Part shown: piece after piece, positions 3 to 56,915 of the stretch
How the letters are laid out: every line of letters starts with the position of its first letter
Numbering within the stretch: position 1 is the stretch's first letter
Assembly: GCA_963740355.1 (NCBI GenBank)
Contig: CAVUDW010000002.1
Location: 256,001-320,000 of the forward strand
Source of the DNA: an uncultured Gemmatimonadaceae bacterium
GTDB lineage: Bacteria > Gemmatimonadota > Gemmatimonadetes > Gemmatimonadales > Gemmatimonadaceae
DNA: 64,000 nucleotides
Direction of reading: 5' to 3'
The notes under the pieces: generated by a model
Told to the model about the DNA's origin: nothing
The model's input: the letters and a program-made list of their open reading frames with translations, nothing else
The model's database searches: none
Program-made: the position numbers and the translations under genes

Positions 3-518
3 TCGCCGGGCGATCAGCGGTTGGTGGCGTACGTCGTCCCGGCCGAGGGCGCGGCCGTGGCCTCGGAAGGGCTGCGTGCCCTGTTGCGCTCGCGGCTGCC
101 TGAATACATGGTGCCTGCGACGATCGTCCCGTTGGCCGAGCTGCCGCTCACGCCGAACGGCAAGATCGATCGGAAGGCGCTCCCGGCGCCGGCCGCCGTG
201 CGACCCGCTGCCGCGACCGCGTCTGACACCGTCATGACCGATCCGCAGCGTCGTGTTGCCGCCATCTGGCGCGACGTGCTCCGCATCGAGCACCTCGGCG
301 TCGACGACAACTTCTTCGACCTGGGCGGACACTCCCTCCTCGTCGTGAAGGTGCATGCGGCCCTCCGACGTGAGTTCCAGAAGGAGCTCACCCTCGTTGA
401 CCTCTTTCAGCATACGACCATTGCTGCGCAAGCCACTCTCGTTTCGTCCGAGGCCACCGATCGTGGCGCGTCCGTCCAGAGGGCGCGCGCACGCGCGGCT
501 CGGCAAGTCCATGTCTGA
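3..518 (+). CDS. NRPS C-terminal fragment (end of A domain + PCP), 5'-partial
   Basis: Frame open from position 3 (SPGDQRLVAYVV). Has LPEYMVP, the A10 motif LPLTPNGKIDRKAL and the PCP motif DNFFDLGGHSLL. True stop may be at 555 (see findings). Confidence 0.93.
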   Translation, partial: SPGDQRLVAYVVPAEGAAVASEGLRALLRSRLPEYMVPATIVPLAELPLTPNGKIDRKALPAPAAVRPAAATASDTVMTDPQRRVAAIWRDVLRIEHLGVDDNFFDLGGHSLLVVKVHAALRREFQKELTLVDLFQHTTIAAQATLVSSEATDRGASVQRARARAARQVHV

Positions 519-551: not shown

Positions 552-3500
552 GTGAGCACCGACCACGTCGCGTCTCGCCGCGCAATTGCCATCGTCGGCA
601 TGAGCGGTCGCTTTCCGGGCGCCCACTCGTTGCAGCAGTTCTGGCAGAATCTGCGCGACGGCGTGGAGTCGCTGGAAACGTTCACCGACGATGAGCTGGA
701 GCAGGCCGGTGTCACCGCCGCGATGCGTGCGCTCCCGGGATGGGTGTCGCGTGGCACCGTGCTGCAGGACGCCGACCACTTCGATGCGGGCTTCTTCGGC
801 TACTCGCCGCGCGAGGCCCAGATCATCGACCCACAGCAGCGGCTCTTCCTCGAGTGCGCGTGGGAAGCGATGGAGCACGCCGGCTACGCCGGTGAGCCGG
901 ACGGACTGACGGTCGCGATCTACGCTGGATCGAGCATGAACACCTACGTCTACAGTCAGTTGCTTCCGAACAAGGAGCTGTTGGCGTCGGTGGGTGGCTA
1001 CCAGGTGATGTTGGGTAACGACAAGGACTTTCTCACCACGCGTGCGTCGTACAAGCTCGACCTGCATGGCCCCAGCATGGCGATCCAGACGGCCTGCTCG
1101 ACGTCACTGGTGGCGGTACAGGTCGCGTGCCAGTCGTTGCTGCGCCGCGAGTGCGACATGGCGCTGGCCGGCGGGGTCTCGATCACCTTCCCGCAGCGCA
1201 CCGGCTATCAGTTCCAGGAGGGGATGATCTTCTCTCCGGATGGGAGCTGCCGACCCTTCGATGCGGATGCGAAGGGAACACGCTCAGGCGCCGGCGCCGG
1301 GATCGTGGTACTGAAGCGGCTCGAGGATGCGCTCGCCGACAACGACACGATTCACGCCGTGATCCTTGGCGCAGCGATCAACAACGATGGCGCTGGCAAG
1401 GCGGGCTACACGGCGCCGAGCATCGATGGTCAGGTGGAAGCGATCGCCACGGCGCAGGCGCTTGCCGGCGTGGCACCGGAGACCATCTCGTACATCGAGG
1501 CACACGGCACGGCCACGCCGCTTGGCGATCCGATCGAGATCGCCGCGCTGACCCGCGTGTTCCGCGAGTCGACGGATGCGACGGGGTTCTGTACGATCGG
1601 ATCGCTGAAGGCGAACCTCGGTCATCTCGATGCGGCGGCCGGTGTGGCTGGGCTGATCAAGACCGTGCTGGCATTGCGCAACCGTGAGCTCCCACCGCAG
1701 CTCAACTTCCGCGCGCCCAATCCGCAGTTGCAGCTCGAGGCCTCGCCGTTTCGTGTGGCCACGACGCCGGAAGCCTGGGTCGCCGGCGCCACGCCGCGGC
1801 GCGCCGGGGTGAGCTCGTTCGGCATCGGCGGCACGAACGCCCATGTCGTGCTCGAAGAAGCTCCGGCCATGCTGCCGAGCGCCACGTCGCGTGACCGCCA
1901 CCTGCTGGTCGTCTCGGCAAAGTCGGCGGAGGCACTGGAACGGGCGACGACCAATCTGGTCGATGCCCTGCGTCGAAATGATGCGCCCGCGCTCGCTGAC
2001 GTCGCGAACACCCTCCAGATCGGCCGCCGCGTCTTTGCACACCGCCGGAGTGTCGTCGCGCGCGACGCGGCCGAGGCGATCGCGTTGCTCGAGGCACCCG
2101 ATAGGGCACCGGTGGCAACCGGCGTACACGACGGTGCGTCACGGCCGGTTGCATTCCTGTTCAGCGGCCAGGGCAGCCAGCATGCGGGGATGTGCGCCGA
2201 GCTGTATCGCACCGAGCGCGTCTACCGCGCGGCCGTCGATCGGTGCGCCGAACTGCTGCAGCCGCATTTCGGGCGCGACGTCCGGGAGTTGCTGCGCGAT
2301 GGCAGCGATGGTGAGCTGAGCGAGACGTACGTCGCGCAGCCGGTGCTGTTCACCACCGAGTATGCACTGGCCGTGCTCTGGATGTCGTGGGGCGTGCAGC
2401 CGGCGGCGATGCTTGGCCACAGCATCGGGGAGTATGTCGCGGCGCACCTGGCCGGTGTGCTGTCGCTCGAGGATGCGCTGTTGCTGGTGTCGGCTCGTGG
2501 GCGGTTGATGCAGGGCATGGCGGCGGGCGACATGCTCGCCGTGCGACTGGCGCCAGCTGACCTGCGCGCCCGCTTGCGTGATGGCGTCGAGATCGCGGCG
2601 GTGAATGCCCCCGCGCTCTGCACCGTGTCAGGCACGCCGCACGCCATCGACGCATTGGCGGCAGAACTCGAGCTGGCCGGCATCGAGCATCGGGCGCTGC
2701 ACACCTCGCACGCCTTCCATTCGGCGATGATGGAGCCGGCGCTGGCGCCATTCCGTGAAATCGTGTCGCGTGTGACGCTGTCACCACCGCGGCGCCCCTA
2801 TGTCTCGAACGTCACCGGCACCTGGATTCGTCCCGAACAGGCGACCTCTCCCGACTATTGGGCGGCACACCTGCGGAACGCAGTGTTGTTCGCCGATGGT
2901 GTGAAGACGCTGAGCACCGATCCGACCATGCAGTTGCTGGAAGTGGGACCGGGCAATGCACTCACGTCGCTGGCGCGGCTCACCCTTGGGCGCGACGATG
3001 CCACGCGCGTGATGGCCTCGCTGCCCCATCCGCGCGAGAAGCGCAGTGAGCTCGAGACCATGCTCAGTGCCGCCGGTCGCTTGTGGGCGAATGGCGTGGC
3101 GATTGACTGGTCTGGGTTGCACGCCGACGAATCGCTGCATCGTGTGCCACTGCCGACTTATCCCTTCGAGCGGAAGCGGCATTGGGTCGATGCCCCGAAG
3201 GGCGACGCGACGGCCGCAGCGGGCAGTGTGTCGATGCGACGCGAGCAGCTCGACGATTGGTTCTACACGCCGACCTGGACGCGCGCGCCGTTGGCGCGCA
3301 CGCGGCTCTCGGCATTGGACGGCACCTGGCTCATCTTCGGCCGCGGCGATGCGTTGGAGCAGGCGGTGGCGGACGGAATGCGCGAGCGTCAGGTCTCCGT
3401 CATTCATGTGCACGAGGGCCCGGAGTTCGCGGTCGCAGGTGCCGACCGGTTCACGGTGCGCGCCACCGATGCCAGGGATCACGGCGCGCTCCTCAAGGAG

Positions 3501-5126
3501 TTGAGTCAGCGCGGTGTGATCGTGCGGGGGGTGCTGCATCTCTGGAACGCCGGCGCGCACGTTACCGTCTCCCACGATCGCGATTGCGCGCTGCATGCGC
3601 TGGCCGCGCTCGGTCGCGCGCTGCTGGTCGAGTCGCCATCGGCGCAGGTCCGCCTCGTGGTCGCCACGACCGACGCGCAGAGTGCGCTCGGTGAACCGGT
3701 GGCGAACCCGGATCGGGCGTTGGTGAGCGGACCGGTGCTGGTGCTCCCGCTGGAGCACGAGGGGGTGCGCGCCAGCACCATCGATCTCGACCCCGTGCTG
3801 GCAGACGGCTGGGCGTCGAGTGCGGCGGCGGCGTTGCTTGATGAGGCGGCGAGCGACGATGCCGACCAGATGGTGGCGCATCGGGTGGGCCAGCGGTGGG
3901 CGCGGCGCTTCGTGAGCGGGTCGTTGCCGGCGGTTGCATCGAAGGCGCTGCCGCTCACCGAGCGTGGTGTCTACCTCGTGACGGGTGGCTTGGGCGGCAT
4001 CGGCGTCACGCTGGCGGAGTGGCTCGCGGCCCAGGTGTCCGCACGCCTGGTGTTGACGTCACGCACGGCGATGCCCCGTCGCGAGGAGTGGGACGGCTGG
4101 GTGTCGGAACATGGCGCGGACGACGCGACGACCCGGCGCATCCTCGACATTCGCAGGATCGAGGCGGCCGGTGGCGAGGTGGCGGTGCTGGTGGCCGATG
4201 TCGCCGACGAGGCCGAGATGCGGACATCCCTGGCAACGGTGGAAAATTCGTGGGGTCCGGTGCGCGGTGTGGTGCACGCAGCAGGTGTCTCTGGTGATGG
4301 GTTGCTGGCGCTATCAACTGCTGATGATGCCCGCGTCGCGATGGACGCGAAGGTCGCAGGGCTCGATTGCCTGCTGGCGCTGCTCGGCGATCGGACGCTG
4401 GACTTCGTCCTCCTCTGCAGCTCGATCAATGCCGTGGGCGGTGTGGCCGGCACCTACGCCTACACCGCCGCCAACGCCTACCTCGATGCCTTCGCCATCT
4501 CGAGCCGGCGGCCCGCAGGGTGGTCGACGCTCTCGATCGCCTGGGATGCCTGGCGCGAGGTCGGGATGGCCACGAAGGTCGTCGTCCCCGCCGCGATGCG
4601 AGCGGCCCGTGCCGCGTACGTCGCCGCCGGCATCCCTCCGCGTGATGGTGCCGAGGCGTTCGGGCGCGCGCTCGCCAGCGGCCTGCCGCTGCATGTCGTG
4701 TCGCCATACGACGTGGAGCGCCTGCTCGAGGGTCGCCGCCGCGCCCATGTGCGCCCCGATCGCGAGGCCGGGACAGAGGCCGCAGCGCCGGCCGCCGAGT
4801 CCGTACCCAGCGAGCGGGTTCGGTCGTCTTCGCATGCTGCCCCAGAGGGCGACATCGAGGAGCGACTGGTATCGGTCTGGGAGGACCTGTTGGGTGTGAC
4901 CACCGTAGGCGTTCACGACAATTTCTTCGAGCTCGGCGGCCACTCGCTCCTGGCCACACGCGTGCTGGCTCGGATCGATGGCTTCTTCGGTGTGCGGCTT
5001 CCGTTGCGCGCCGTGTTTGAGGCGCCCACGATCCGACAGCTGGGCCAGTTGATCGCCGCCGAGGCGCTCGCGACTGCCACCGAAGCCGCTGCGCCTGCCG
5101 GCGATCGTGAGGAGTTCGAGCTGTGA
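552..5126 (+). CDS. Hybrid-type PKS module KS-AT(malonyl)-KR-carrier (PCP-like), accepting a peptidyl intermediate
   Basis: KS has GNDKD and QTACSTS (typical of a KS following NRPS modules), EAHGTAT and GHLDAAAG. AT has GHSIG and HAFHS. KR has TGGLGGIG and YTAAN. Carrier FFELGGHSLL. C-terminus REEFEL. Confidence 0.95.
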   Translation: MSTDHVASRRAIAIVGMSGRFPGAHSLQQFWQNLRDGVESLETFTDDELEQAGVTAAMRALPGWVSRGTVLQDADHFDAGFFGYSPREAQIIDPQQRLFLECAWEAMEHAGYAGEPDGLTVAIYAGSSMNTYVYSQLLPNKELLASVGGYQVMLGNDKDFLTTRASYKLDLHGPSMAIQTACSTSLVAVQVACQSLLRRECDMALAGGVSITFPQRTGYQFQEGMIFSPDGSCRPFDADAKGTRSGAGAGIVVLKRLEDALADNDTIHAVILGAAINNDGAGKAGYTAPSIDGQVEAIATAQALAGVAPETISYIEAHGTATPLGDPIEIAALTRVFRESTDATGFCTIGSLKANLGHLDAAAGVAGLIKTVLALRNRELPPQLNFRAPNPQLQLEASPFRVATTPEAWVAGATPRRAGVSSFGIGGTNAHVVLEEAPAMLPSATSRDRHLLVVSAKSAEALERATTNLVDALRRNDAPALADVANTLQIGRRVFAHRRSVVARDAAEAIALLEAPDRAPVATGVHDGASRPVAFLFSGQGSQHAGMCAELYRTERVYRAAVDRCAELLQPHFGRDVRELLRDGSDGELSETYVAQPVLFTTEYALAVLWMSWGVQPAAMLGHSIGEYVAAHLAGVLSLEDALLLVSARGRLMQGMAAGDMLAVRLAPADLRARLRDGVEIAAVNAPALCTVSGTPHAIDALAAELELAGIEHRALHTSHAFHSAMMEPALAPFREIVSRVTLSPPRRPYVSNVTGTWIRPEQATSPDYWAAHLRNAVLFADGVKTLSTDPTMQLLEVGPGNALTSLARLTLGRDDATRVMASLPHPREKRSELETMLSAAGRLWANGVAIDWSGLHADESLHRVPLPTYPFERKRHWVDAPKGDATAAAGSVSMRREQLDDWFYTPTWTRAPLARTRLSALDGTWLIFGRGDALEQAVADGMRERQVSVIHVHEGPEFAVAGADRFTVRATDARDHGALLKELSQRGVIVRGVLHLWNAGAHVTVSHDRDCALHALAALGRALLVESPSAQVRLVVATTDAQSALGEPVANPDRALVSGPVLVLPLEHEGVRASTIDLDPVLADGWASSAAAALLDEAASDDADQMVAHRVGQRWARRFVSGSLPAVASKALPLTERGVYLVTGGLGGIGVTLAEWLAAQVSARLVLTSRTAMPRREEWDGWVSEHGADDATTRRILDIRRIEAAGGEVAVLVADVADEAEMRTSLATVENSWGPVRGVVHAAGVSGDGLLALSTADDARVAMDAKVAGLDCLLALLGDRTLDFVLLCSSINAVGGVAGTYAYTAANAYLDAFAISSRRPAGWSTLSIAWDAWREVGMATKVVVPAAMRAARAAYVAAGIPPRDGAEAFGRALASGLPLHVVSPYDVERLLEGRRRAHVRPDREAGTEAAAPAAESVPSERVRSSSHAAPEGDIEERLVSVWEDLLGVTTVGVHDNFFELGGHSLLATRVLARIDGFFGVRLPLRAVFEAPTIRQLGQLIAAEALATATEAAAPAGDREEFEL

Positions 5127-8100
5127 GCAACGCGACCTTCGCACTGCTCGATCAGCTTCGTGCACTCGACGTGCATGTCCGCGCCGAGGACGGTCGGCTT
5201 CGCATCAGCGCGCCGAAGGGCAGCCTGACTCCCGCGCTCGAAGCCGCATTGGTGGCAAGCAAGGCGGAGCTGCTGAAGGTGTTGACGGCCGCCCCTACGG
5301 CGGCGGCCACCTCGACGCCGGTGCTCTCGCCGGTGCCACGGATCGGGACGCTCCGGCTTTCGTACCTGCAGGAACGGCTCTGGGTGCTGGACCAGCTGCA
5401 GCCCGGGCACACGGCGTACAACCTCGCCACGGCGTCGAGCGTGATCGATCCGCTCGACATTCCGCGACTGGTGGCTGCGTCGCGGCGCCTCATCGCGCGG
5501 CATGAGATCCTGCATTCGCACTTCGTGCTCGATGGGTCGTCGCCCGTGGTGCGGGTCGCGCCCGCCGACTCTACCAGGATCGACGTGCGTGACCTGCGTG
5601 GGCTGGCGGTTGAGGAGCAGCAACGCGTGGTGTCGGCCGCCGCGAGTGTCGCAGCGCATGCACCGTTCGATCTCGCGCACGAATCGCCCGTTCGGATCGA
5701 GATCCTCCAGACCGGTGACACCGCCGGAGCATTCGTCTTCTCCGCGCACCACATCGCCGTCGACTCATGGTCGATGGGGCTATTGATGCAGGAGCTGACG
5801 CGAGAGTACGAATCGCTGGCTGCTGGGCAGTCGCCGCCACGTGAGCCCGAGCCGCTGCAGTACATCGATTTTGCGCAGTGGCAACGTGCGGTGATGGAAG
5901 GCCCGGGGGCGCAGGCGCGACTCAAGTTCTGGACCGATCGTCTCGCGGGGCTGCCGCAGATGAGCACCTTCCCGACGGATCATCCACGACCGATCGATGT
6001 CTCGGGCGTTGGCATGGCGTACGATTTCGCCTGGTCGCCGGAGCTCTATGATGGCGTGAAGGCCATGGCGCGCGACCTCGATGCGACGCTGTACATGATC
6101 CTGCTGGCGGCCATGGCGTCCGTCTTGTCGCGCAATACGGGACAGACCGACATTGCGCTCGGTAGCCCGCTCGGAACCCGCGAGCGGTCGGAACTGGAGG
6201 CCATGATCGGACCGATCGTCAATCCGCTGGTGATGCGATTCGATCTTTCCGATGATCCGCCGTTCGCGACGCTGGTGAAGCGTGCGCGCGAGGCCGTGCT
6301 GGACGGACACGCGAATCAGGACGTTCCGTTCGAGACGCTGGTGCAGCAGCTCAATCCGGATCGCTCGCTGGGACACGCACCGCTCTTTCAGGTGGCGGTG
6401 GTGCAGCACAGCGCGCCCAACGCCGGTGGCACCGCCATCACGGGCGGCGGTGCGATCTACGACGTGACGATGTTTGCGACCGAGCATCATGGCATGCTGA
6501 CTGGCGCGCTCGAGTATCGCTCGGACCTGTACGATCCGGCGACCATCGCGCGCGTCGATTCGCAGATCCAGTCGTTGCTGATGGCAGCGGCACGCGACCA
6601 CCAGCGTCGCGTGTCGGAGCTCCCCTTGCTGACGCCTGCTGAGTCAGCGCGGCTGCTGCACGAGTTCAATCCCGCGCCGGCCGACGTGGATCGGACGACG
6701 GTCGTCGCGCAGTTCGCCCGGACGGCCACCGCGCACGGCGCGCGCGGTGCGGTGCTGGCCTCGGACGGAACGCTGACGTACGCGGAGCTGGATCGCCGCT
6801 CCAACCTCGTCGCTCATGCCTTGCGCGCCGCAGGCGCAGGCCGTGGCATGTACGTCGCACTCGCCACCGATCGATCGAGCGCCATGGTCGTCGGTGCGCT
6901 CGGGATCCTGAAGGCTGGCGCGGCCTATGTGCCTGTGGATGTGGCGTACCCCGCCGATCGTGTGGCCTTCATGCTGCGCGACAGTGGTGTGCAGCACATC
7001 GTGACGACCGAGGAGGCGCTGCAGTCGATTCGCGACCTCCAGCTCCCGTCGGCGGTGATCAAGGTCGATGAGTTGGTCAGCTCCGACGCGGTGGCACCGA
7101 CCATTGCAGTGGCCGATGGCCCCACGCCCGAAGACGTGGCCTACCTCATCTACACGTCGGGCTCCACCGGGACACCGAAGGGTGTGATGGTGCCGCATCG
7201 CGCCATGAGCAACTTCCTCGGCGCGATGCGTGAACGGCCCGGCATCTCGCCGGATGACGGCGTGATGTGCGTGACGTCGATGTCGTTCGACATCTCGGTG
7301 CTGGAAGTGTTCCTGCCCCTGGTCAGTGGTGCCCGCACCATCATCGCGGCGCGCGAAGATGCCAGCGATGGCGCGCGCCTGGCGGAATTGATCCGACGGA
7401 GCGAAGCGACCATGGTCCAGTCCACGCCGTCGGGGTGGCGACTGTTGATGAACGCGCGGTGGTCGGGCGATGAACGTGTGACCGCGATCGCGGGCGGCGA
7501 GCCAATGCCTGAGGACCTCACCCGCTGGCTCACGGAGCGCGTCCGGCGGGTGTGGAACGGCTACGGTCCGACCGAGACCACGGTCTATTCGACGATGGCG
7601 CTCCTGACCGGCAGCGACATGATCACGATCGGAACGCCGGTCGCCAACACCCGCGTCTACGTACTCGACGCCGGCGGGATGCTGGCACCGATTGGTGCGC
7701 CGGGCGAGATCGTCATTGGCGGCGACGGGGTCACGCTGGGTTACCGCAACCGTGCCGACCTGACAGCTGAAAAGTTCGTGCCCGACCCCTTCCAGCCTGG
7801 TCAGACGGTGTACCGCACCGGCGACATCGGGCGGTGGAGGTCCGACGGCCGCCTGGAGCACCTCGGCCGGATCGACGGGCAGGTCAAGGTGCGCGGATAT
7901 CGCATCGAAACCGGTGAGATCGAGGCCGCGCTGTCGACGCACGAGATGGTTCGCACCGCGGTCGTCGGTGTCCGTCACGCGTCGGCCGACGATCCGCGCC
8001 TGGTGGCGTGGGTCCAGCTGCATGAAGAGGACTCGTGCACCGCCAGCGAGCTGCGGCGGCACCTCCGCCAGATGCTGCCGGAATTCATGATTCCGTCGAT

Positions 8101-8452
8101 GGTGGTGCTGGTCGAGTCATTCGTCCTCACGCCCAACGCCAAGATCGACAGCAAGGCGCTGCCGGAACCGTTTGCACACGCGAAGTTCGCGCCGCATGAG
8201 TTCGTTGCGCCGGCGACCGACTCGGAGAAGATGATTGCCGAGGTCTGGACCCGTTTGCTTGGGGTACCACATGTGGGTGCTTCCGACAGCTTTTTCGAGC
8301 TTGGCGGCCATTCGCTGCTCGCGATGCGTGCAGCGAGCGAAATTTCGGAACGGAGCGGTCGAGTGATCGAACCGCGCCTGCTCTTCTTCCGCACCCTTGG
8401 CCAGCTGGCCGAAGCGTGTGATGCCACGATCCCAGTTGCCGGACGCACGTGA
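5123..8452 (+). CDS. NRPS module: N-terminal TubC-like beta-hairpin docking domain-C-A-PCP, no thioesterase
   Basis: N-terminal LRALDVHVRAEDGRLRISAPKGSLT docking pattern. C domain HHIAVD. A-domain motifs YTSGSTGTPKG, YGPTETT, YRTGD, QVKVRGYRIE. PCP FFELGGHSLL, then a short tail. Confidence 0.95.
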   Translation: MSNATFALLDQLRALDVHVRAEDGRLRISAPKGSLTPALEAALVASKAELLKVLTAAPTAAATSTPVLSPVPRIGTLRLSYLQERLWVLDQLQPGHTAYNLATASSVIDPLDIPRLVAASRRLIARHEILHSHFVLDGSSPVVRVAPADSTRIDVRDLRGLAVEEQQRVVSAAASVAAHAPFDLAHESPVRIEILQTGDTAGAFVFSAHHIAVDSWSMGLLMQELTREYESLAAGQSPPREPEPLQYIDFAQWQRAVMEGPGAQARLKFWTDRLAGLPQMSTFPTDHPRPIDVSGVGMAYDFAWSPELYDGVKAMARDLDATLYMILLAAMASVLSRNTGQTDIALGSPLGTRERSELEAMIGPIVNPLVMRFDLSDDPPFATLVKRAREAVLDGHANQDVPFETLVQQLNPDRSLGHAPLFQVAVVQHSAPNAGGTAITGGGAIYDVTMFATEHHGMLTGALEYRSDLYDPATIARVDSQIQSLLMAAARDHQRRVSELPLLTPAESARLLHEFNPAPADVDRTTVVAQFARTATAHGARGAVLASDGTLTYAELDRRSNLVAHALRAAGAGRGMYVALATDRSSAMVVGALGILKAGAAYVPVDVAYPADRVAFMLRDSGVQHIVTTEEALQSIRDLQLPSAVIKVDELVSSDAVAPTIAVADGPTPEDVAYLIYTSGSTGTPKGVMVPHRAMSNFLGAMRERPGISPDDGVMCVTSMSFDISVLEVFLPLVSGARTIIAAREDASDGARLAELIRRSEATMVQSTPSGWRLLMNARWSGDERVTAIAGGEPMPEDLTRWLTERVRRVWNGYGPTETTVYSTMALLTGSDMITIGTPVANTRVYVLDAGGMLAPIGAPGEIVIGGDGVTLGYRNRADLTAEKFVPDPFQPGQTVYRTGDIGRWRSDGRLEHLGRIDGQVKVRGYRIETGEIEAALSTHEMVRTAVVGVRHASADDPRLVAWVQLHEEDSCTASELRRHLRQMLPEFMIPSMVVLVESFVLTPNAKIDSKALPEPFAHAKFAPHEFVAPATDSEKMIAEVWTRLLGVPHVGASDSFFELGGHSLLAMRAASEISERSGRVIEPRLLFFRTLGQLAEACDATIPVAGRT

Positions 8453-9234
8453 ACCTGCTGTTTTTTGGATCCTCGAGCCGACAGTTGTTCGGCGCGTATC
8501 ACACGCCTCCGGTGTCGGTTCCGGGGCGTGGCGCTGCGCTGCTCTGCCCACCGTGGGGGCCGGAGTATCTGGTGTCGCATCGGATCTTTCGCCGACTCGC
8601 GGTGCGACTGAGCGAGAGCGGGTATCACGTGTTGCGGTTCGACTACTTCGGAACGGGTGACTCGGCCGGGGACCGCGAAGACGGGGACCTGAGCACGTGG
8701 CAGTCGGACGCTGAGACTGCGCTCGAGGAGCTGCGCGACATGTCCGGGTTTCCGACGGTGGCGGTGTTTGGCATTCGCCTCGGAGCAGTGGTCGCCTGGC
8801 GCCTGGCGACGACGCGGCGTGATGTGCACACCGTGGTGCTCTGGGACCCGGTCGTCCATGGTGATCAGTACCTGCGCGAGATGGTGATGGCGCAGCGCGA
8901 GACGGATCGGTGGTCGCTGACCCCAGTGCACCGCCGCGATTCGGTGGAGAGTGTGCAGGATCTGCTTGGCTTTCCCATGACCGCAGCGATGCGTCGCACC
9001 ATCGACGCCATCGACACCGACGAGTTCACCGCCACCACCGCAGCGCACGTGAAGCTGTTCTATTCCGACGAGTTGCCTGGGCAGCACGACCTGCATGATG
9101 CGTTGCGGTCCAGCGGCACGCCGTTCCACGAAGAAACGGTGCGCGGCCAGACGCCGTGGCGTGAAGACGAGGGCATTGGCGCCGGCGGCCTGCCGGTGCT
9201 GGTGCTCGAGCGCATGGTGGAGATCCTTCGATGA
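8449..9234 (+). CDS. Alpha/beta-hydrolase-fold protein with Arg at the nucleophile position (GIRLG), resembling exosortase-associated hydrolase 2
   Basis: LRFDYFGTGDSAG motif, elbow GIRLGA at 8770-8784, VLWDPV. GTGA overlap with the NRPS stop. Confidence 0.85.
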   Translation: MNLLFFGSSSRQLFGAYHTPPVSVPGRGAALLCPPWGPEYLVSHRIFRRLAVRLSESGYHVLRFDYFGTGDSAGDREDGDLSTWQSDAETALEELRDMSGFPTVAVFGIRLGAVVAWRLATTRRDVHTVVLWDPVVHGDQYLREMVMAQRETDRWSLTPVHRRDSVESVQDLLGFPMTAAMRRTIDAIDTDEFTATTAAHVKLFYSDELPGQHDLHDALRSSGTPFHEETVRGQTPWREDEGIGAGGLPVLVLERMVEILR

Positions 9235-10181
9235 CCGGGACGGCCAACACGATTCGCGAGCGGGTGGTGCGCTTCGGGCCGGACAAGCGTCTGGCCGGGA
9301 TTCTCACGCTCAGTCGCGAAGTGCGCGGCGACCTGCCGCACATCGTGATCGTGAATGCCGGAATCATCCATCGGGTGGGCCCGAATCGTCTCTACGTCGA
9401 CCTCGCACGGGCCGCCGCTGCACTCGGCTATCCAGTGCTGCGCTTCGATCTCGCTGGCCTCGGCGATTCCGATGCGATCACCGGCGTGGCATCACTCAAT
9501 GACGCGGCGATGACCGATGTGCAGTCGGCGTACGACTTCCTGACGCAGACACGACAGGCCACGTCGTTCATCATTTTCGGGCTCTGTTCCGGCGCCAACT
9601 TCGCGGTGATGAGCACCTTCATCGAGCCGCGTGTGATTGGGGCCTTGTTGATCGACCCGACGGTGGAACGCACCACGCGCAGCACGCTGATCCACGTGGC
9701 GCGTCGCCTCAAGCATTTCGCCACACTCCAGGCGTTGCTCACGCTCCGGCATCCAATCTTCCAGCGCTCGATTTCGCTGGGCCGCGTGCGCAGCGTGGCG
9801 GTGGCGCGCGCCGCCGAAGGCCAGAGTGGCCAGCGCTACGAGCCGGAACTGCAGGAGACCTCCAGCCGCGGCGCCGTGCGCGCATCGCTGGAAGAAATCG
9901 TCAATCGCGGCGTGCACCTGATGCTGGTCTTCACCGGCGGCGTGAATCACGTCTATAACTACCGCAATCAGTTGTTCGACCTGCTGCCAGGACTGGACTT
10001 CCGCGGACAGCTGCGTCTGGAATACATGCCAAACACGGATCACACGGTCAGCGATGGGCCCGGTCGTGCGCAGTTGCTGGTGTACGTGCGCGAATGGCTG
10101 ACGGCCGCCTTCCCTGCCGCAGCGGTCACCGAAGAGCTCCCGGTGCCAAGTGCCGACGAGCGAACGGAGGCGGTGATATGA
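9231..10181 (+). CDS. Alpha/beta-hydrolase-fold protein with a Cys nucleophile elbow (GLCSG), resembling exosortase-associated hydrolase 1
   Basis: HRVGPNR, LRFDLAGLGDS, GLCSGA at 9579-9593, C-terminal TDHT His motif. ATGA overlap with the upstream gene. Confidence 0.85.
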   Translation: MTGTANTIRERVVRFGPDKRLAGILTLSREVRGDLPHIVIVNAGIIHRVGPNRLYVDLARAAAALGYPVLRFDLAGLGDSDAITGVASLNDAAMTDVQSAYDFLTQTRQATSFIIFGLCSGANFAVMSTFIEPRVIGALLIDPTVERTTRSTLIHVARRLKHFATLQALLTLRHPIFQRSISLGRVRSVAVARAAEGQSGQRYEPELQETSSRGAVRASLEEIVNRGVHLMLVFTGGVNHVYNYRNQLFDLLPGLDFRGQLRLEYMPNTDHTVSDGPGRAQLLVYVREWLTAAFPAAAVTEELPVPSADERTEAVI

Positions 10182-10954
10182 GCGCCGTGGCTTCGCCACC
10201 GGCACTGGTGCGCCTCGGCCATCGCCCTGAACCGCGCCGCCGCCTCTTCTGCTTGCCGTTTGCAGGCGGTGGTGCCGCGGCGTATGGCTTGTGGTGGCGT
10301 TCGCTGCCGGCAGACATCGAGGTGCAGGCCGCGTTGTTGCCGGGTCGCGAATCGCGCATCCGCGAGCAGCCGCTGGACACCATCGCGGCGATGGTGGACG
10401 CTGTCTTGCCATCGATCCAAGCGAAGCTGGACCTGCCCTATGCCATCTTCGGGCACAGCATGGGTGGGCTGCTGGCATTCGAGATTGCGGCGGCGCTGGA
10501 GCGCGCCGGTGGTCCCGCGCCAGAGCACCTTTTCGTGTCAGCGCGGCGTTCACCGGATGAGCCGGACCCTGCGACGCCGATGCATCGGCTGCCGGAGCTC
10601 GAGTTTCTCGACACCATGAACGATCGCTACGGCGCCGTGCCTGAAGCGGTGCGCGCCGAGCGTGAGTTGCTCGAACTGTTGCTGCCAGTGCTGCGGGCAG
10701 ACACCCACGCCATCGAGACCTACGAGCCGTCGCGCGAGCGCCGCGTGCGCTGCAAGGTCCATGTCTTCGGCGGACTCGAAGATCGATATCCAACGCCAGC
10801 GCAGTTGCCGAACTGGCAGCGTGTGGCCGAGCAGCCGATTCGAGTTCGCGTTTTTGCTGGTGATCATTTCTATCTCACGGCCCAGCGCGACGCGCTGACG
10901 GCGGACATTGCTGCCACATGGCAGACCGCTCCAGTAGAGGCGGCACGGGCATGA
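10178..10954 (+). CDS. Type II (editing) thioesterase
   Basis: LFCLPFAGGGA, LPGRESR, FGHSMG, LRAD, GDHFY. Start placed at ATG 10178 (ATGA overlap, GGAGG upstream) rather than 10094. Confidence 0.93.
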   Translation: MSAVASPPALVRLGHRPEPRRRLFCLPFAGGGAAAYGLWWRSLPADIEVQAALLPGRESRIREQPLDTIAAMVDAVLPSIQAKLDLPYAIFGHSMGGLLAFEIAAALERAGGPAPEHLFVSARRSPDEPDPATPMHRLPELEFLDTMNDRYGAVPEAVRAERELLELLLPVLRADTHAIETYEPSRERRVRCKVHVFGGLEDRYPTPAQLPNWQRVAEQPIRVRVFAGDHFYLTAQRDALTADIAATWQTAPVEAARA

Positions 10955-13900
10955 ACGGGCACGGGGCAGGGTCGGTAGCAGCGATGCCGATTGCCATCAT
11001 TGGCATCGGGTGTCGTTTTCCGGGTGGCATCGTCGACACCGACAGTTTCTGGCGGGTGCTGGCCGATGGTGTGGACGCGATCGGTGAAATTCCGGCGGAT
11101 CGCTTCGACATCGCCAAGTACTACGATCCGAAGCCGGGTGTGCGCGGCCGCATCATGACCAAATGGGGTGGCTTCGTCGAGCAGCGCCTCGAGGACTACG
11201 ACGCGGCGTTTTTTGGCATTTCGCGCTCGTATGCCGACCGTCTCGATCCGCAGCAGCGCCTGTTGCTCGAAACATCGTGGGAAGCACTCGAGGATGCGGG
11301 CCTCGATGCGGTGGGGCTGCAGGGATCGGCGACCGGCATTTTCGTCGGCCAGTGGACGAGTGACTTCGAGCATCGCCTCTTCTCGGATGCCAGCGGCATC
11401 GACTTCCAGATGGCGATGGGCAGCGGCCGGTATGCGGCGGCAGGGCGCTTGTCGTACGCGCTCGGTTTCCGCGGACCAAGCCTGTCCATCGATGCCGCCT
11501 GCTCATCGGGACTGGCATCGGTGCACCTCGCGGTGCGGAGCCTGCGCAGTGGCGACAGCGCCGTCGCGCTGGCCGGCGGCGTGAACATGATCATGGAGCC
11601 ACACATCCATCTTGCGTACTCGTACAGCAAGATGATGGCGCCCGATGGTCGTTGTCGCTTCGGTGACGCGGCCGGCAAGGGGTATGTGCGTGCCGAAGGT
11701 GCCGGCATGGTCGTGCTGAAGCCCCTCGACGCGGCGCTCGCTGACGGCGACCACGTCTACGCCGTGATCCGTGGCAGCGCGGTGAACAACGACGGCAACA
11801 GCAGCGGCGCCATGGGGCGACCAAGCCGCATCGGGCAGGAAGAGTTGCTGCGGAGCGCGCTGAACGAAGGTGGTGTTCATGCGTCGCAGCTCGATTATGT
11901 CGAGGCGCACGGTACCGGCACCAAGGCGGGTGACCCGGTAGAGCTGGGAGCGTTGGCGACGGTGCTGGCCGAGGGCCGCCCCGCTGATGCCGCGCCCACC
12001 TGGGTGGGATCGGTAAAGACGAACTTCGGTCACACTGAAGCCGCAGCCGGTGTGGCAGGACTGATCAAGGCGGCGCTGATGCTGGAGCGCGGCATGATTC
12101 CGCCCAGCCTTCACTTCGACACGCCGAACACTGAAGTGCCGTGGGCCAGCATTCCAATTGCCATTCCAACGTCGCTGATGCCGTGGCCGGCACGCAGTGG
12201 CCCACGGTTCGCGGGCGTCAGTTCGTATGGCATCGGTGGCACCAATGCGCATGCCGTCCTCGAGTCGGCACCGGTGGTGGTGCCGGCTGAGCGTGTTGCC
12301 CCACCGAGCGGCACGCCGCTCGTGCTGCCGCTCTCCGGTCGTGGCGACGCGGGCTCGCGCGCAGTGGCGGCGGTGTACGCATCACACCTGGAGCAGCTGG
12401 ATCCAGCTGCCGTCCCCGATTTCTGCTGGACGGCGGCAACACGTCGCTCGGCACTAACACATCGCGCCGCGTTCGTCGCAACCGATCGCGAGGCGCTGAT
12501 CGCCGCGCTGCGTGAGTATGCGACAGGCGGCCCAGCCACGGCCAGCGGCGTGGTGCACGACCGTGCGCGCCGGCGCGTCGCATTCGTGGTGCCGGGTCAG
12601 GGCGCACAGTGGGTCGGCATGGCGCGCCAACTTGCGTCCACCGTGCCGATCTTCCGCGCCGCGCTGGAGCGATGTGATGCGGCCGCACGTCGTATCGTCC
12701 CGTGGTCGATCATCGACCAGCTCTACATCGACGAGGGAACGGCAGCGTTTCAGGGTGACCGCATCGACGTGATCCAGCCGACGTTGATCGCGATCGCGAT
12801 TGCGTATGCAGCGTGGCTTCGTTCCATCGGCATTGAGCCGGATGCGGTGGTCGGGCACAGTCTCGGCGAAGTGGGCGCGGCGGCGATCGCCGGCGTGCTC
12901 GACATCGATTCCGCCATGCGTGTCATCTGCCAGCGCAGCCTGCTGATGCAGCGCACCAGCGGGCAGGGTGCAATGGCGGTCGTCGAGCTCTCGCGTGCGG
13001 AGGCCGAGGCGCGGTTGGTGGGCTACGAGACGCGCGTGTCGATCGCGGTCAGCAACAGCCCGAAGTCGACCGTGATCTCCGGTGATCCGTCGGCAGTGTC
13101 GGAGATTCTGGCCGCGCTCGAACGAGACGGTGTCTTCTGCCGGCTGGTGAAGGTCGACGTTGCGTCGCACAGCCCGCAGATGGATCCGCTGGTGCCGGAA
13201 CTGGTGCAGGCGCTGGACGGGCTGCCGACGATGTCGGGAACGGTGCCGGTATATTCCACGGTCAGTGCGTCGATCGCCGACGGCGACGCATTCGGCGCCA
13301 GCTACTGGGGACAGAACCTTCGACAGCCCGTGCAGTTCGGTGCCACTGTCGAGCGCCTGATCGCCGATGGTTTCACGGCGTTCATCGAACTCGGACCGCA
13401 CCCGGTACTGACGCAGGCGATCGAGCAGACGGCCAAGGGCGTTGGCAAGGACGTGGTGGCGGTGGCATGCGGGCGTCGCGATACGGCGGACCTGCTCGCC
13501 GTGCACAGCGCGGTTGCCTCGCTGTGGACGCGTGGTGTCGCTGTCGACTGGATGCGCACACTGCCTCGCGGTGGGCGCCTCGTGAAGCTGCCGTTTTATC
13601 CATGGCAGCGCGAACGGCATTGGGTGGATGCGGCCGACCTGATCGATGATGCAGGTACCGCGGCACGGAAGTCGTCGCTGGATGAACATGCCAAGCGGGC
13701 GCTGCACACGCTGGTCTGGCAGGAGTCAGCGATGCCGTCGTCGACGACACAGGGATTGTCGACGTGGATCGTGGTTGGCGCGCCGGGAGATGCTGCCGAG
13801 TCGGTCGCCGCGGCCCTGCGCGATGGTGGCGCATCGGCAACTGTCGTGGCCTCGATGGCCGATGCTGGTGTTGCCCTGCGGGCAGAAGAGGATCGACGCG

Positions 13901-15552
13901 ACGCCGGCATCATCGTGCTGCCTGCCAGCGATGCCGACATCGCGTACTCGCCCGTCGCCGGAATGCAGGCGCTGCAACAGTCGATGGGTGATACGCCAGG
14001 CGGCGCGGTACCGCGCGTGTGGTGGGTCACGGTCGGTGCCCATGCGGTTGCGGGCACGGCTCCGGCAGCAGCGTGTGCCGCACGCGCAGCGGCGTGGGGT
14101 GCAGCACGTGTCCTCGGTGAAGAGTATCCGCAGTGGTGGGGCGGGTTGATGGATCTCGATCCCTCGCAGTCGCTCGCGGCGCAGTCACCGGCAATTGTGG
14201 CACACCTCGCGACCGGTACTGCCGAGGATCAGGTGGCGTTCCGCGATGGTACGCGATACGCGCTGCGTCTCGTGCGTGCGGCGGCGCAGCACGCACCACC
14301 AGTCGCGTGGCGTGCTGATGCGGCATACCTGATCACCGGTGGCTTCGGCGGTGTGGCGCTGCAGATGGCCCACGCGATGGTCAGTGACGGCGCTCGACGG
14401 CTGGTCTTGCTTGGCCGTACCACACTGCCCCCTCGCGCCGCCTGGGCCTCGCTCGATCCGGCATCGGCCATTGGCCAACGTGTGGCGGCGGTCCGTGCGC
14501 TGGAGCACGCCGGCGCATCGGTGCACCTGCTGTCGGCGGACATCTCGGATGAAGCCTCGGTCCGTGCCGCCTTGGCCACCTACGAGGCCGAAGGGTGGCC
14601 GCCGATCGATGGCGTGATCCACAATGCGGCCGTGCTCGGGAATCGCCTGGCGCGAGACCTCACGCCGAGTGATTTCGACGCAGTGCTGGCGCCGAAGCTG
14701 GGCGGTGCGACGGTGCTCGATCGCATCTTCCCGACCGTCTCGGTGTTTGTGCTGTCGTCATCGATCAGCGCGTACTGGGCACCGCCGGGCATGGCGAACT
14801 ACGCCGCTGCCAACGCCGGTGTCGATGCGCTGGCAGCAGCGCGGCGCGCGCGCGGTGTGCACGCCGTGAGCATCCAATGGTGCCCATGGCACGACGTCGG
14901 GATGCACCACTCCGCCAACATGTCGCGCAACTTCGACGAGATGGCGAAGATGGGCGTGCGTTCGATCACGGGTGAAGAGGGTGTGGCGTTCTTCCGCGCA
15001 CTGATCACGCGGCCCGAGTCGGTGCTCAGTGTGCTCCCCATCGACTGGGGTACGTATCGCAAGGCGCGTCGCGGTCGCGATGCGTCGGTGTTCCGCGCCA
15101 TTCCCGACGCATTGCCGCAGGCCAGCGATGCGGAGGCGACGGATGGCGTGCTGCAGCAGCTGAAAGCGGCAAGTGTCATCGATCGTCGCACCTTGCTCGA
15201 CACGCTGGTGCGCAACGTCGTGGCCGGCGTGATTCGTCGGCCGGCGGCACAACTCGATGCACAGCAGCCATTCGGCGCCGTGGGCGTGGACTCGCTGATG
15301 GCACTCGAGATTCGTAATCGACTGGAGACGGCGCTCGAACGACGGTTGACGGCGACGCTGACATGGAACTATCCCACCGTCGAAGCGCTGGCAGCGCATC
15401 TCGATACACTGATCGCGCCAGTGTCACCCGCAGGAGTGGCAGCCGTGCCTGAGGCAGCGGCGGAGCAGGTCGAGGAGACGGTGCCTGCGTTCGCTGAGAT
15501 CGTCGCGCTGTCGGACGCCGATGCGTTGCGTGCGCTGCGGCGTGGGAAGTAG
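10951..15552 (+). CDS. PKS module M1: KS-AT(non-malonyl, VASH)-KR(A-type)-ACP
   Basis: KS DAACSS, EAHGTGT, GHTEAAAG. AT RIDVIQP, GHSLG, DVASHS. KR lacks LDD and has Trp 8 residues before YAAAN. ACP GVDSLM. Start ATG 10951 overlaps the TEII stop. Confidence 0.94.
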   Translation: MNGHGAGSVAAMPIAIIGIGCRFPGGIVDTDSFWRVLADGVDAIGEIPADRFDIAKYYDPKPGVRGRIMTKWGGFVEQRLEDYDAAFFGISRSYADRLDPQQRLLLETSWEALEDAGLDAVGLQGSATGIFVGQWTSDFEHRLFSDASGIDFQMAMGSGRYAAAGRLSYALGFRGPSLSIDAACSSGLASVHLAVRSLRSGDSAVALAGGVNMIMEPHIHLAYSYSKMMAPDGRCRFGDAAGKGYVRAEGAGMVVLKPLDAALADGDHVYAVIRGSAVNNDGNSSGAMGRPSRIGQEELLRSALNEGGVHASQLDYVEAHGTGTKAGDPVELGALATVLAEGRPADAAPTWVGSVKTNFGHTEAAAGVAGLIKAALMLERGMIPPSLHFDTPNTEVPWASIPIAIPTSLMPWPARSGPRFAGVSSYGIGGTNAHAVLESAPVVVPAERVAPPSGTPLVLPLSGRGDAGSRAVAAVYASHLEQLDPAAVPDFCWTAATRRSALTHRAAFVATDREALIAALREYATGGPATASGVVHDRARRRVAFVVPGQGAQWVGMARQLASTVPIFRAALERCDAAARRIVPWSIIDQLYIDEGTAAFQGDRIDVIQPTLIAIAIAYAAWLRSIGIEPDAVVGHSLGEVGAAAIAGVLDIDSAMRVICQRSLLMQRTSGQGAMAVVELSRAEAEARLVGYETRVSIAVSNSPKSTVISGDPSAVSEILAALERDGVFCRLVKVDVASHSPQMDPLVPELVQALDGLPTMSGTVPVYSTVSASIADGDAFGASYWGQNLRQPVQFGATVERLIADGFTAFIELGPHPVLTQAIEQTAKGVGKDVVAVACGRRDTADLLAVHSAVASLWTRGVAVDWMRTLPRGGRLVKLPFYPWQRERHWVDAADLIDDAGTAARKSSLDEHAKRALHTLVWQESAMPSSTTQGLSTWIVVGAPGDAAESVAAALRDGGASATVVASMADAGVALRAEEDRRDAGIIVLPASDADIAYSPVAGMQALQQSMGDTPGGAVPRVWWVTVGAHAVAGTAPAAACAARAAAWGAARVLGEEYPQWWGGLMDLDPSQSLAAQSPAIVAHLATGTAEDQVAFRDGTRYALRLVRAAAQHAPPVAWRADAAYLITGGFGGVALQMAHAMVSDGARRLVLLGRTTLPPRAAWASLDPASAIGQRVAAVRALEHAGASVHLLSADISDEASVRAALATYEAEGWPPIDGVIHNAAVLGNRLARDLTPSDFDAVLAPKLGGATVLDRIFPTVSVFVLSSSISAYWAPPGMANYAAANAGVDALAAARRARGVHAVSIQWCPWHDVGMHHSANMSRNFDEMAKMGVRSITGEEGVAFFRALITRPESVLSVLPIDWGTYRKARRGRDASVFRAIPDALPQASDAEATDGVLQQLKAASVIDRRTLLDTLVRNVVAGVIRRPAAQLDAQQPFGAVGVDSLMALEIRNRLETALERRLTATLTWNYPTVEALAAHLDTLIAPVSPAGVAAVPEAAAEQVEETVPAFAEIVALSDADALRALRRGK

Positions 15553-21500: not shown

Positions 21501-22132
21501 GTGGGCGCGGATTGCACTGGATCGATCCCGAGCGCGCCTTCGCGCAGATGGCGCGGCTGCTCGCAGAGCACGCCACGCAGGTGATTGCGATGCCCATCAA
21601 CTGGGCACAGTTCCTCGAAAGACTGCCCGCAGGCGAGGATCGCAGCTTCTTCCGCGCGGTCGAGCCGATGGTGCGTCGAGTGCCGACGGCACCGCTGGCA
21701 GCCACCGGCCGCGCGGTGTCGGTGGTGGAGAGCTGGCGCGCAGCACCGGCGTCAGCCTGGCGCGACCTCGCCATTGCGCACGTCCTCGAGCGAACGCGCC
21801 AGGTGCTGGGGGTAGACGACCTGTTCGTGATCCCGGAAGGGGTGGCGCTGAAGGATGTGGGACTCGATTCGCTGATGGCGGTCGAGTTGCGCAACGTGCT
21901 GACGCGGTCGCTGGGCAAGTCGCTGCCGGCGACCCTCCTCTTCGACTACCCGTCGCTCGATGCACTGAGTGGCTACCTGCTGCGCACCTTCGAGCTGTTA
22001 CCACCGGTGGTGCCCGCCGTCGTGAGCGTGCCAACCAACGCCACCTCCGAGATCGAAACACTCACCGACGAGGAAGCAGAAGCGTTGCTGCTGGCCGAAC
22101 TGAACTCCCTGGACTCCCAAGGCCGCCGATGA
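15559..22132 (+). CDS. PKS module M2: KS-AT-DH-ER-KR-ACP, one frameshift near 17900 in this sequence
   Basis: ORF 15559-18144 has KS (DTACSSS) and AT (GHSIG, YAFHS). Reading continues in ORF 17495-22132 from PCYSSVTG with [38 protein letters not shown]. Confidence 0.9.
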
Positions 22133-34183: not shown

Positions 34184-40898
<6,715 letters not shown>

Positions 40899-40902
<4 letters not shown>

Positions 40903-46900: not shown

Positions 46901-47372
46901 TTCCACCGCACGCAACGTGGCGGCGTTGCCGCTCGACAAGGCTCGCCTGCCGCAAAACCTCGGCGTGTTCTTCGAGCGCTTGCTGGTGAAGGAGTCCAAG
47001 CAGGCCGCGCGCGGTAACACAGCGGGTGTCGACGTACTGCGACAGATCACCGACGCCACTCCCGAGGCACGTGAGGACATTCTCCGCGTTTTCCTCACCG
47101 AGCAGATCGTCCGTGTGCTGGCCCTCTCGTCGGCCAGTCGCGCACGTCCCGATCAGTCGCTGATGGACATCGGCATGGACTCGCTGACGGCGATGGAGCT
47201 TCGCAACCGTGTGCAGGGTGCGGTGAAGGTTCGCCTCTCGGTCGCCGACCTGCTGCAGGGACCGACGATCAATCAACTGACGACGATGATCCTCGGTGAA
47301 CTGGACTTCGGCACTGACGCCGTGGTCGCCGCCGTCGATGCAAGCGCCAGCTGGGAAGAAGGATCGTTGTGA
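40899..47372 (+). CDS. PKS module M6: KS-AT(malonyl)-DH-ER-KR-ACP with C-terminal WEEGSL motif
   Basis: Intact 2157-aa ORF: DTACSSS, GHSVG, HAFHS, DH HRIYESPLFP and HPALLD, ER HAATGGVG, KR VVDDG and FSS..YAAAN, ACP GMDSLT. No TE. Confidence 0.95.
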
Positions 47373-50541: not shown

Positions 50542-50567
50542 TCGGTGCTCACCGGCGCCGCTGCCCG

Positions 50568-51098: not shown

Positions 51099-51317
51099 TG
51101 GGGTCACTCCGGGGAGTCGACCCCTGCCGACCGAATGGTCTGCGCCCGGGGTGCGAGTGGACTGAAATACACTCACGGTCGGGCAGGGTTTCCACCAGGG
51201 CGAGGGCGCCGCAGGTGTTGGGGCCAATCCAGCATTGCCCCGGCCGGCGCCGTTGCTTCGTTTGTTGTGGCGCGGCCGTGGGGCCGCCTGATTCGTCCCC
51301 GACACCGGTTCCAGGTC

Positions 51318-54410: not shown

Positions 54411-54422
54411 CAGTCGTCGGTT

Positions 54423-54878: not shown

Positions 54879-54888
54879 GTGGTGCTCA

Positions 54889-56896: not shown

Positions 56897-56915
56897 GTGG
56901 GAGCGGAGGCAGCGA

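Follow-up and report, generated by a model that had tools for sequence, protein, structure and literature searches.

Gene organisation around hydA and hydB

The window, that is the whole stretch of DNA analysed, comprises 64,000 nucleotides (nt) from an uncultured Gemmatimonadaceae bacterium (contig CAVUDW010000002.1, positions 256,001 to 320,000) with a G+C content of 63–69%, in which 27 open reading frames (ORFs) were scanned with Pfam. A single plus-strand operon fills it from base 1 up to 48.3 kb, encoding a hybrid assembly line of nonribosomal peptide synthetases (NRPS) and polyketide synthases (PKS). We focus on two genes of this operon, named hydA and hydB, which directly follow an NRPS gene and encode unlike alpha/beta-fold proteins with an arginine and a cysteine, respectively, at the nucleophile elbow, and on their possible role in taking the finished chain from its carrier protein. 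The operon contains the following genes (A, adenylation; ACP, acyl carrier protein; AT, acyltransferase; C, condensation; DH, dehydratase; ER, enoylreductase; KR, ketoreductase; KS, ketosynthase; MT, methyltransferase; PCP, peptidyl carrier protein):

3–518, plus strand: 3′ end of an upstream NRPS-type A-PCP gene whose start lies outside the window; AMP-binding_C and PP-binding by Pfam, best NCBIfam matches to NRPS families
552–5126, plus strand: PKS1, KS-AT-KR-ACP by Pfam, with the KS Cys and His residues present
5123–8452, plus strand: NRPS module, TubC_N docking domain-C-A-PCP by Pfam; 1109 amino acids, PP-binding at residues 1038–1098
8449–9234, plus strand: hydA, alpha/beta-fold protein with the elbow GIRLG; 261 amino acids, GTG start
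9231–10181, plus strand: hydB, alpha/beta hydrolase with the elbow GLCSG; 316 amino acids, ATG start
10178–10954, plus strand: type II thioesterase (TEII), coupled to hydB; PF00975 at 163.7 bits, motifs GHSMGG and GDHF
10951–15552, plus strand: PKS3, KS-AT-KR-ACP by Pfam; coupled start at 10951 within an ORF that opens at 10918
15559–22132, plus strand: PKS4, KS-AT-DH-ER-KR-ACP; frameshift near 17.9 kb, AT profile split over two overlapping ORFs
22129–26547, plus strand: PKS5, KS-AT-MT-ACP by Pfam
26544–34183, plus strand: PKS6, KS-(AT)-DH-MT-ER-KR-ACP; at least five ORFs, breaks between 28.3 and 31.4 kb
34184–40902, plus strand: PKS7, KS-AT-DH-MT-KR-ACP; three ORFs, breaks near 35.7 and 37.35 kb
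40899–47372, plus strand: PKS8, the last module, KS-AT-DH-ER-KR-ACP by Pfam; C-terminal ACP, no thioesterase or reductase domain
47369–48286, plus strand: EamA-family transporter gene, possibly an exporter; GTGA overlap with PKS8

A first-pass annotation had described an NRPS that ends at its PCP and is coupled to a pair of alpha/beta-fold genes with non-serine elbows, no thioesterase in cis, and a normal TEII behind the pair; all of this was confirmed. The two ORFs carry GIRLG and GLCSG as described, and hydB has the C-terminal residues D270-H271-T272. The NRPS protein ends 11 residues past its PP-binding match, and no thioesterase or reductase domain was found in it by Pfam. It is joined to hydA by a four-base start/stop overlap (GTGA), and overlaps of the same length (ATGA) link hydA to hydB, hydB to the TEII gene and the TEII gene to PKS3; several later junctions are of this kind too. 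Within the 27 ORFs scanned, the stand-alone TEII was the sole match to PF00975 and no reductase domain was detected. At the 5′ side of the NRPS gene, PKS1 ends in the C-terminal tail ...DREEFEL, ahead of the docking domain of the NRPS.

Elbow residues and predicted complex

Searches against NCBIfam gave TIGR03101 as the best match of hydA (96.7 bits, E 1.6e-27) and TIGR03100 as that of hydB (73 bits, E 2.4e-20, residues 20–168 only). These are the models of exosortase A-associated hydrolases 2 and 1, the pair that the first-pass annotation had named as similar. The kinship stood, membership did not: both scores fell far short of the curated cut-offs (202.75 and 168.45, respectively), and on sequence hydA and hydB are relatives of the two families, not members. 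None of 28 scored relatives reached the cut-offs. One trait of the exosortase A pair, unlike hydrolases encoded side by side, was found here in the 4-bp overlap of hydA and hydB and in 77 of the 80 genome loci described below, the other three being at a contig end. Another, the XrtA/PEP-CTERM exopolysaccharide context, had no match in the window ORFs scanned and was seen in relatives L017, L031 and L070. In Pfam the two proteins matched Hydrolase_4 (41.9 bits for hydA, 29.8 bits for hydB), neither matched PF00975 at E ≤ 0.001, and a homologue of the window protein in the ESM Atlas fell only in clusters labelled 'alpha/beta fold hydrolase'.

The elbow of hydB reads G117-L-C119-S-G121. In the AlphaFold2 (AF2) model, which had a mean predicted local distance difference test score (pLDDT) of 81.9, C119 follows strand 5 (residues 113–118) and H271 follows strand 8, the last one (residues 261–266). 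By residue position, hydB would thus have a nucleophile-histidine-acid triad composed of C119, H271 and either D142 or D270. For conservation counts, all domains in hand were sorted by the better-scoring profile into 323 hydA-type and 414 hydB-type domains. The nucleophile position was occupied by Cys in 412 of the 414 hydB-type domains, with one Ser, and His271 was present in every one of the 373 hydB rows aligned at that position. The motif GxCxG was present in 114 of 121 hydB homologues and in 77 of 80 genome loci; in L066 and L071 the hydB ORF was full-length and GxCxG was not found. Counted in representatives of 50%-identity clusters, the hydB profile retrieved 14,505 at E ≤ 0.001 and 3,284 at E ≤ 1e-30.

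In hydA the elbow is G108-I-R110-L-G112, and its model (mean pLDDT 86.2) placed R110 directly after strand 5, the canonical place of the nucleophile. Arginine was found at this position in 314 of 323 hydA-type domains, and GxRxG in 119 of 121 homologues and 76 of 77 genome loci, L076 having a full-length hydA ORF in which the motif was not found. Because both GxCxG and GxRxG are kept across homologues, the odd elbows are not due to chance. hydA lacks a catalytic triad: its elbow carries R110 and no His is conserved beyond the last strand; D133 is retained. A cysteine, Cys33, is predicted at the oxyanion-hole position next to R110 and occurred in 314 of 323 hydA-type domains, as often as the arginine itself (in the window its codon is 8545–8547). 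Its role could be structural, or it could bind the phosphopantetheine arm as a ligand or serve as a second thiol that accepts acyl groups. The mean column identity of 61% in the hydA alignment (A2) and the retention of Cys33 indicate that hydA is not decaying. The earlier description of hydA as probably inactive is therefore apt as far as the missing Ser/Cys nucleophile and His are concerned, and is qualified by the conserved Cys33. In the window, hydA and hydB were 96–97% identical to one relative and 50–81% to many others, all with the key residues kept, and the closest relatives were proteins of Gemmatimonadaceae metagenome bins.

Folding of the two chains together gave an ipSAE interface score of 0.89 in three runs, against a best value of 0.00 in three controls. 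In calibration, 116 of 157 solved complexes attained the 0.89 mark, as did 2 of 215 mismatched pairs; the calibration is only rough here, custom alignments having been used. At least 73% of contacts agreed between runs and partner pLDDT was at least 76. Residues of the predicted interface that were invariant in both alignments were H44, R45 and T69-G70-D71 of hydA and H47, R53 and G78-D79 of hydB; the interface also takes in hydB 236–243 and 267–278, beside His271. The model fits a pseudo-symmetric dimer with its contact next to the hydB active site. The heterodimer suggested in the first-pass annotation is thus supported by structure prediction, and also by the 68 hydA-hydB fusions among 120 longer proteins described in the next section.

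Natural fusions and gene context in other genomes

The sample of 120 longer proteins found with hydA consisted of 68 hydA-hydB, 25 A-CP-hydA (CP, carrier protein), 16 C-A-CP-hydA, six KS-AT-(CP)-hydA, two CP-hydA and one C-hydA fusions and two proteins with hydA only. The 68 hydA-hydB fusions carried GxRxG in their first half and GxCxG in their second, and some of the C-A-CP-hydA proteins carried a TubC_N docking domain. hydA was the C-terminus of a synthase in 50 fusions, 47 of them with a detected carrier domain, which is the normal place of a thioesterase. The order was fixed, hydA always lying C-terminal to the carrier and hydB after hydA, as in the gene order; hydB directly behind a carrier was never found among the fusions. 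From this order it appears that hydA holds the position of a thioesterase domain and that the two proteins work as one unit. In addition, two of the 150 best hydB representatives (P0313 and P0358) were fused to a Polysacc_synt_3 (Wzx-like flippase) domain, and in P0090 a hydB domain 55% identical to that of the window was fused to a type II thioesterase. The flippase and TEII fusions mirror gene neighbours in L016, L019 and the window.

In a single scan of species-representative genomes, 213 loci were found, of which the best 80 were analysed, with domains mapped by tblastn using the window's own domains. The 80 loci span at least seven phyla (Gemmatimonadota, Alpha-, Beta- and Gammaproteobacteria, Myxococcota, Planctomycetota, Acidobacteriota and others). 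A carrier domain ended just upstream of hydA on the same strand in 57 of them, the gap being 48 bp at the median and 585 bp at most; 50 of these carriers belonged to an A-PCP and seven were matched alone, six of the seven at a contig end. In seven loci hydA and hydB were divergent, with an A domain next to hydA in five; 13 had a tandem pair and no carrier match directly upstream, three of these being cut by a contig end, and three lacked upstream sequence. PKS or NRPS catalytic domains were matched in 67 loci. Twelve of the other 13 had a contig end 0.1–1.3 kb upstream, and the remaining one, L031, is a polysaccharide locus. The association with carrier-ending synthetases lacking a thioesterase, as expected in the first-pass annotation, was thus borne out by the 57 loci and by the 47 fusions with hydA behind a detected carrier.

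Downstream of hydB, 65 loci had at least 3 kb of sequence: 47 showed no module within 5 kb, six had convergent modules only and 12 had modules on the same strand, leaving 53 of 65 loci with no same-strand module after the pair. Eight of the 12 belong to the window's own clade and share its continuation of TEII gene and then PKS genes. The counts of upstream carriers and downstream modules indicate that the pair usually closes an assembly-line operon devoid of a thioesterase domain; the terminal position behind the last carrier, found across the family, is ambiguous in the window, where PKS genes follow. The most frequent neighbour found was a phosphopantetheinyl transferase (PPTase) gene, near the pair in 15 loci.

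Part of the family lies among polysaccharide genes. In the cultured Variovorax paradoxus VAI-C, where hydA and hydB are at CP063167 2406619–2408374, the order on one strand is NRPS, PPTase, hydA and hydB, followed by genes for polysaccharide export and by tyrosine-kinase, sugar-transferase and glycosyltransferase genes. On a Shinella plasmid, inside a polysaccharide locus, a fused hydAB gene lies between a flippase gene and genes for an ACP, an AMP-binding protein, a pyridoxal phosphate (PLP) enzyme and an ATP-grasp protein, and in Azospirillum lipoferum 4B a fused hydAB occurs with an ACP and an amino acid-[ACP] ligase. In L031 the pair is flanked by genes for an XrtA/PEP-CTERM glycosyltransferase on one side and an XrtA polysaccharide deacetylase on the other, each scoring above its cut-off; a PEP-CTERM protein and an exosortase are encoded downstream in L017, and in L016 and L019 a flippase gene adjoins hydB.

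A second, convergent NRPS with its own distant hydA/hydB-like pair at the end was present in L011, L020, L033, L035, L037, L040 and L042, five of which are from Hydrogenophaga (an example is L020 10952–12573, minus strand). The second pairs were 24–28% (hydB) and 29–39% (hydA) identical to those of the window. Since the convergent NRPS carries its own pair, these loci are read as two paralogous systems lying tail to tail.

Within the window, three of the six PKS genes downstream of the pair (PKS4, PKS6 and PKS7) are frameshifted, while PKS1, the NRPS gene, hydA, hydB, the TEII gene, PKS3, PKS5 and PKS8 are intact; counterparts of the broken genes are intact in L001 and L002. Either the cluster is decaying or the frameshifts are errors of sequencing or assembly in repetitive modules. 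Two readings of the synthases were dropped. The substrate of the A domain could not be taken from its match to LgrA, because the PDB score was the sum of two A domains (270 + 292 bits) and carried no specificity signal. The conserved unit had also been considered as a series of fatty-acyl ligase, PKS and NRPS that would produce an N-(3-hydroxyacyl) amino acid, a reading given up because its first protein resembles an NRPS and is no clear fatty-acyl ligase. This upstream protein showed 46–53% identity to the module-2 A domain in relatives.

Downstream of the operon, genes for a PepSY_TM protein, an extracytoplasmic function (ECF)-type sigma factor (55296–55862, minus strand) and a TonB-dependent siderophore receptor (56916–59084, minus strand; TIGR01783 at 260.6 bits, above the cut-off) lie within 48466–59084 and possibly form an iron-uptake set. 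A further alpha/beta hydrolase gene (49675–50571, minus strand; Hydrolase_4 at 61.9 bits) adjoins a signal peptidase II gene, lspA (50568–51557, minus strand), whose product has a long N-terminal extension. The lspA ORF is overlapped by a plus-strand ORF for an S9 peptidase with tetratricopeptide (TPR) repeats (50616–54410), and because of this overlap one of the two starts has been over-called. An IS110-family transposase gene (DEDD_Tnp_IS110, Transposase_20; 63227–64000, minus strand) runs past the window end.

Proposed role in chain termination and comparison with known systems

We propose, with a probability of roughly 0.6, that hydA and hydB together form a split module, acting in trans, that terminates chains held as carrier-protein thioesters. 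The chain on the phosphopantetheine of the last carrier would be brought to the hydA-hydB dimer, in which hydA, a pseudo-hydrolase, would bind hydB and act as the carrier-side adaptor. Cys119 of hydB would take over the chain as a thioester, aided by His271 and probably Asp142 or Asp270, and a final nucleophile, be it water, an internal group or another acceptor, would release the chain from hydB; hydA may lend part of the pocket through R110 and C33. Every one of these chemical steps is inferred; what the data show directly is the anatomy of the pair and its conservation.

As to the outcome of the last step, transfer to a non-water acceptor or attack by an internal nucleophile is put forward tentatively, and plain hydrolysis is held to be less probable. 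The slight lean towards the former comes from the near-invariant cysteine, from the part of the family located in polysaccharide loci and from the consideration that ATP would be burnt in a futile cycle if a bare A-CP-hydA protein and its hydB did nothing but hydrolyse. Transfer rather than hydrolysis had also been suggested in the first-pass annotation; circumstantial backing for it was obtained from relatives (exopolysaccharide operons, flippase fusions and A-CP-hydA proteins), and the window itself, having no glycan genes, offered none. A more elaborate version, which we regard as unlikely, is a two-subunit module with a composite active site at the interface, possibly a thiol relay between Cys33 and Cys119, that would graft the chain onto an acceptor other than water, for instance a lipid-linked glycan or some other molecule of the envelope.

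The carrier served in the window would be either the PCP of the NRPS (5123–8452) or the ACP of PKS8 (40899–47372). If the line is colinear, running from A-PCP through PKS1 and the NRPS to PKS3–PKS8, the pair may serve the PKS8 ACP or act as a shuttle. Alternatively, the NRPS PCP may be terminal, as in most relatives, and PKS3–8 a line that is separate or has a supplying role. PKS3 may be the beginning of its own line: the N-terminus, which is short, is devoid of the coiled-coil docking helix of PKS4–8, and the KS active-site motif is atypical, IDAACSSG vs DTACSSS in the others (window 10918–12100). These two features, together with the lack of a tail after the PCP of the NRPS, point weakly to a separate PKS3–8 line. 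The earlier assignment of this PCP as likely terminal holds for most relatives and is uncertain here, with six PKS modules in the same coupled operon.

Several observations weigh against a termination module. The pair lies mid-operon in the window, as in eight close relatives, and because the TEII gene and six PKS modules follow it the NRPS PCP need not be terminal; the adjacent TEII could itself be the releasing enzyme. The start of the assembly line lies outside the window, so that its upstream part is unseen. An acceptor pathway is not visible either, there being no match to an exosortase, PEP-CTERM, flippase, Wzy or glycosyltransferase protein in the window ORFs scanned, and a polysaccharide-type neighbour was found in only about 13 of the 80 loci by a crude tblastn survey. 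The acid of the putative hydB triad is ambiguous, as D142 is present in 334 of 414 domains and D270 in 307 of 373. Foldseek comparison of the AF2 models with the PDB returned generic esterases, lipases and polyethylene terephthalate (PET) hydrolases only (7qjm, 8b4u, 7q4h, feruloyl esterases), with template modelling (TM)-scores on the query of 0.47–0.57 for hydB and 0.54–0.74 for hydA, and a profile search of PDB sequences had the same generic outcome. Finally, no published assay of any enzyme of the hydA/hydB family was found in the literature searched.

Of the other roles considered, the most probable is an inter-carrier shuttle resembling CmaE or SyrC, moving the chain from the NRPS PCP to PKS3 with no release. 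In its favour, hydB has a cysteine nucleophile, the NRPS has no C-terminal docking tail past its PCP, PKS3 lacks the N-terminal docking helix of PKS4–8, PKS genes come after the pair in the window's clade (eight loci), and transfer of the CmaE and SyrC type between carrier proteins is described in passages of PMC8748450. We hold the shuttle to be improbable, as 53 of 65 loci have no same-strand module after the pair, hydA is the C-terminus of the synthase in 50 fusions and some relatives occur in loci with a single carrier protein. The fusions placing hydA directly behind carriers, the near-absolute adjacency to carrier-ending genes and the loss of the nucleophile in a partner conserved at 61% mean column identity would go unexplained if the pair were an accessory esterase- or lipase-like enzyme outside offloading, engaged in tailoring, deacylation, proofreading beside the TEII or self-resistance. 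We give that role a still lower probability, even though its closest neighbours among solved structures are esterases, lipases and polyester hydrolases and the window already contains a TEII and the second alpha/beta hydrolase gene at 49675–50571.

The least probable account is that the pair is a relic that came down with the NRPS from an ancestor whose PCP was terminal, while the chain now passes through PKS3–8 and exits elsewhere, for example by the TEII. The restriction of the downstream TEII and PKS modules to the window's clade among same-strand loci (8 of 12) would suit such a history, and the frameshifts in several PKS genes of the window hint at decay of the cluster. What weighs against it is the state of the pair itself: hydA and hydB are intact and translationally coupled, they keep their key residues at 96–97% identity to one relative and 50–81% to many, and the frameshifts strike PKS genes and spare the pair, the PKS genes being intact in L001 and L002.

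A termination role for hydA and hydB would matter for genome mining, where the rules seek a PF00975 thioesterase, a reductase or a terminal condensation domain as the end of a line and the pair matches none of them. It sits at the end of NRPS/PKS genes in many phyla, whether free-standing, fused to the carrier or with its subunits fused, and many clusters listed as 'TE-less' (lacking a thioesterase) would gain an explained ending if it is a true offloading enzyme; the long-unexplained exosortase A hydrolase pair would also gain a first testable function. Should transfer be its reaction, the products may be modifications of polysaccharides or lipids, not free metabolites, and be missed by ordinary metabolite screening, and grafting onto the envelope would link NRPS/PKS lines to the decoration of cell-surface polymers.

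Of the systems with which the pair can be compared, the exosortase A-associated hydrolases 2/1 are the nearest, being likewise unlike alpha/beta hydrolases encoded side by side. TIGR03101 and TIGR03100 are 'hypothetical equivalog' models with no assayed function. Relatives of the window pair adjoin XrtA-system genes (L031, L017) or cassettes of ACP, AMP-ligase and PLP-enzyme genes; the window pair itself differs in scoring below the cut-offs and in having no exosortase, PEP-CTERM or polysaccharide genes around it. Its partner is a modular NRPS/PKS, whereas in the exosortase A cassette it is reportedly a stand-alone ligase with an ACP. Synthases of N-acyl amino acids are said to have been linked to the PEP-CTERM/exosortase system by Craig, Cherry and Brady in 2011. 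In Haft 2006 (PMC1569441) the words hydrolase, acyl carrier, ligase and decarboxylase do not occur.

With the type I and type II thioesterases of PF00975 the pair has in common the alpha/beta fold and the place behind the last carrier, occupied by hydA in the 47 fusions. These thioesterases form an acyl-enzyme intermediate, and the same intermediate is proposed for hydB; thioesterase domains containing a cysteine are described for SulM and ObiF in parts of PMC11298585 and PMC6668435. Unlike them, hydA and hydB belong to Hydrolase_4/Abhydrolase_6 and are two unlike subunits, one without a nucleophile, with a normal TEII alongside.

A cysteine is also used by CmaE and SyrC. Passages of PMC8748450 describe CmaE, SyrC, CouN7 and LgnA as trans-acting proteins of the hydrolase fold that form a covalent acyl-enzyme from a carrier thioester and pass the acyl group on instead of hydrolysing it. 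By description hydB resembles them; they are single proteins delivering to a carrier or a small-molecule scaffold, and no Arg-elbow partner is described in those passages.

The Dlt system offers a precedent for an adenylation enzyme and a carrier followed by transfer onto a cell-surface polymer, with DltA as the adenylating enzyme, DltC as the carrier and DltB/DltD transferring to teichoic acid, as stated in part of PMC13231372. The relatives of the pair in polysaccharide loci suggest the same logic. The transfer proteins differ, being MBOAT and DltD in the Dlt system, the match to a DltD-domain chain was very weak (E 0.003), and the window has no surface-polymer genes.

Trans-acting offloaders and shuttles of the hydrolase fold and thioesterase domains with a cysteine are therefore already known. 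In the literature searched we found no study of the hydA/hydB pair or of a two-subunit module with an Arg-elbow partner at the thioesterase position, and relative to that literature the new element is the two-subunit arrangement, in which a Cys-elbow hydrolase is joined by a conserved Arg-elbow partner.

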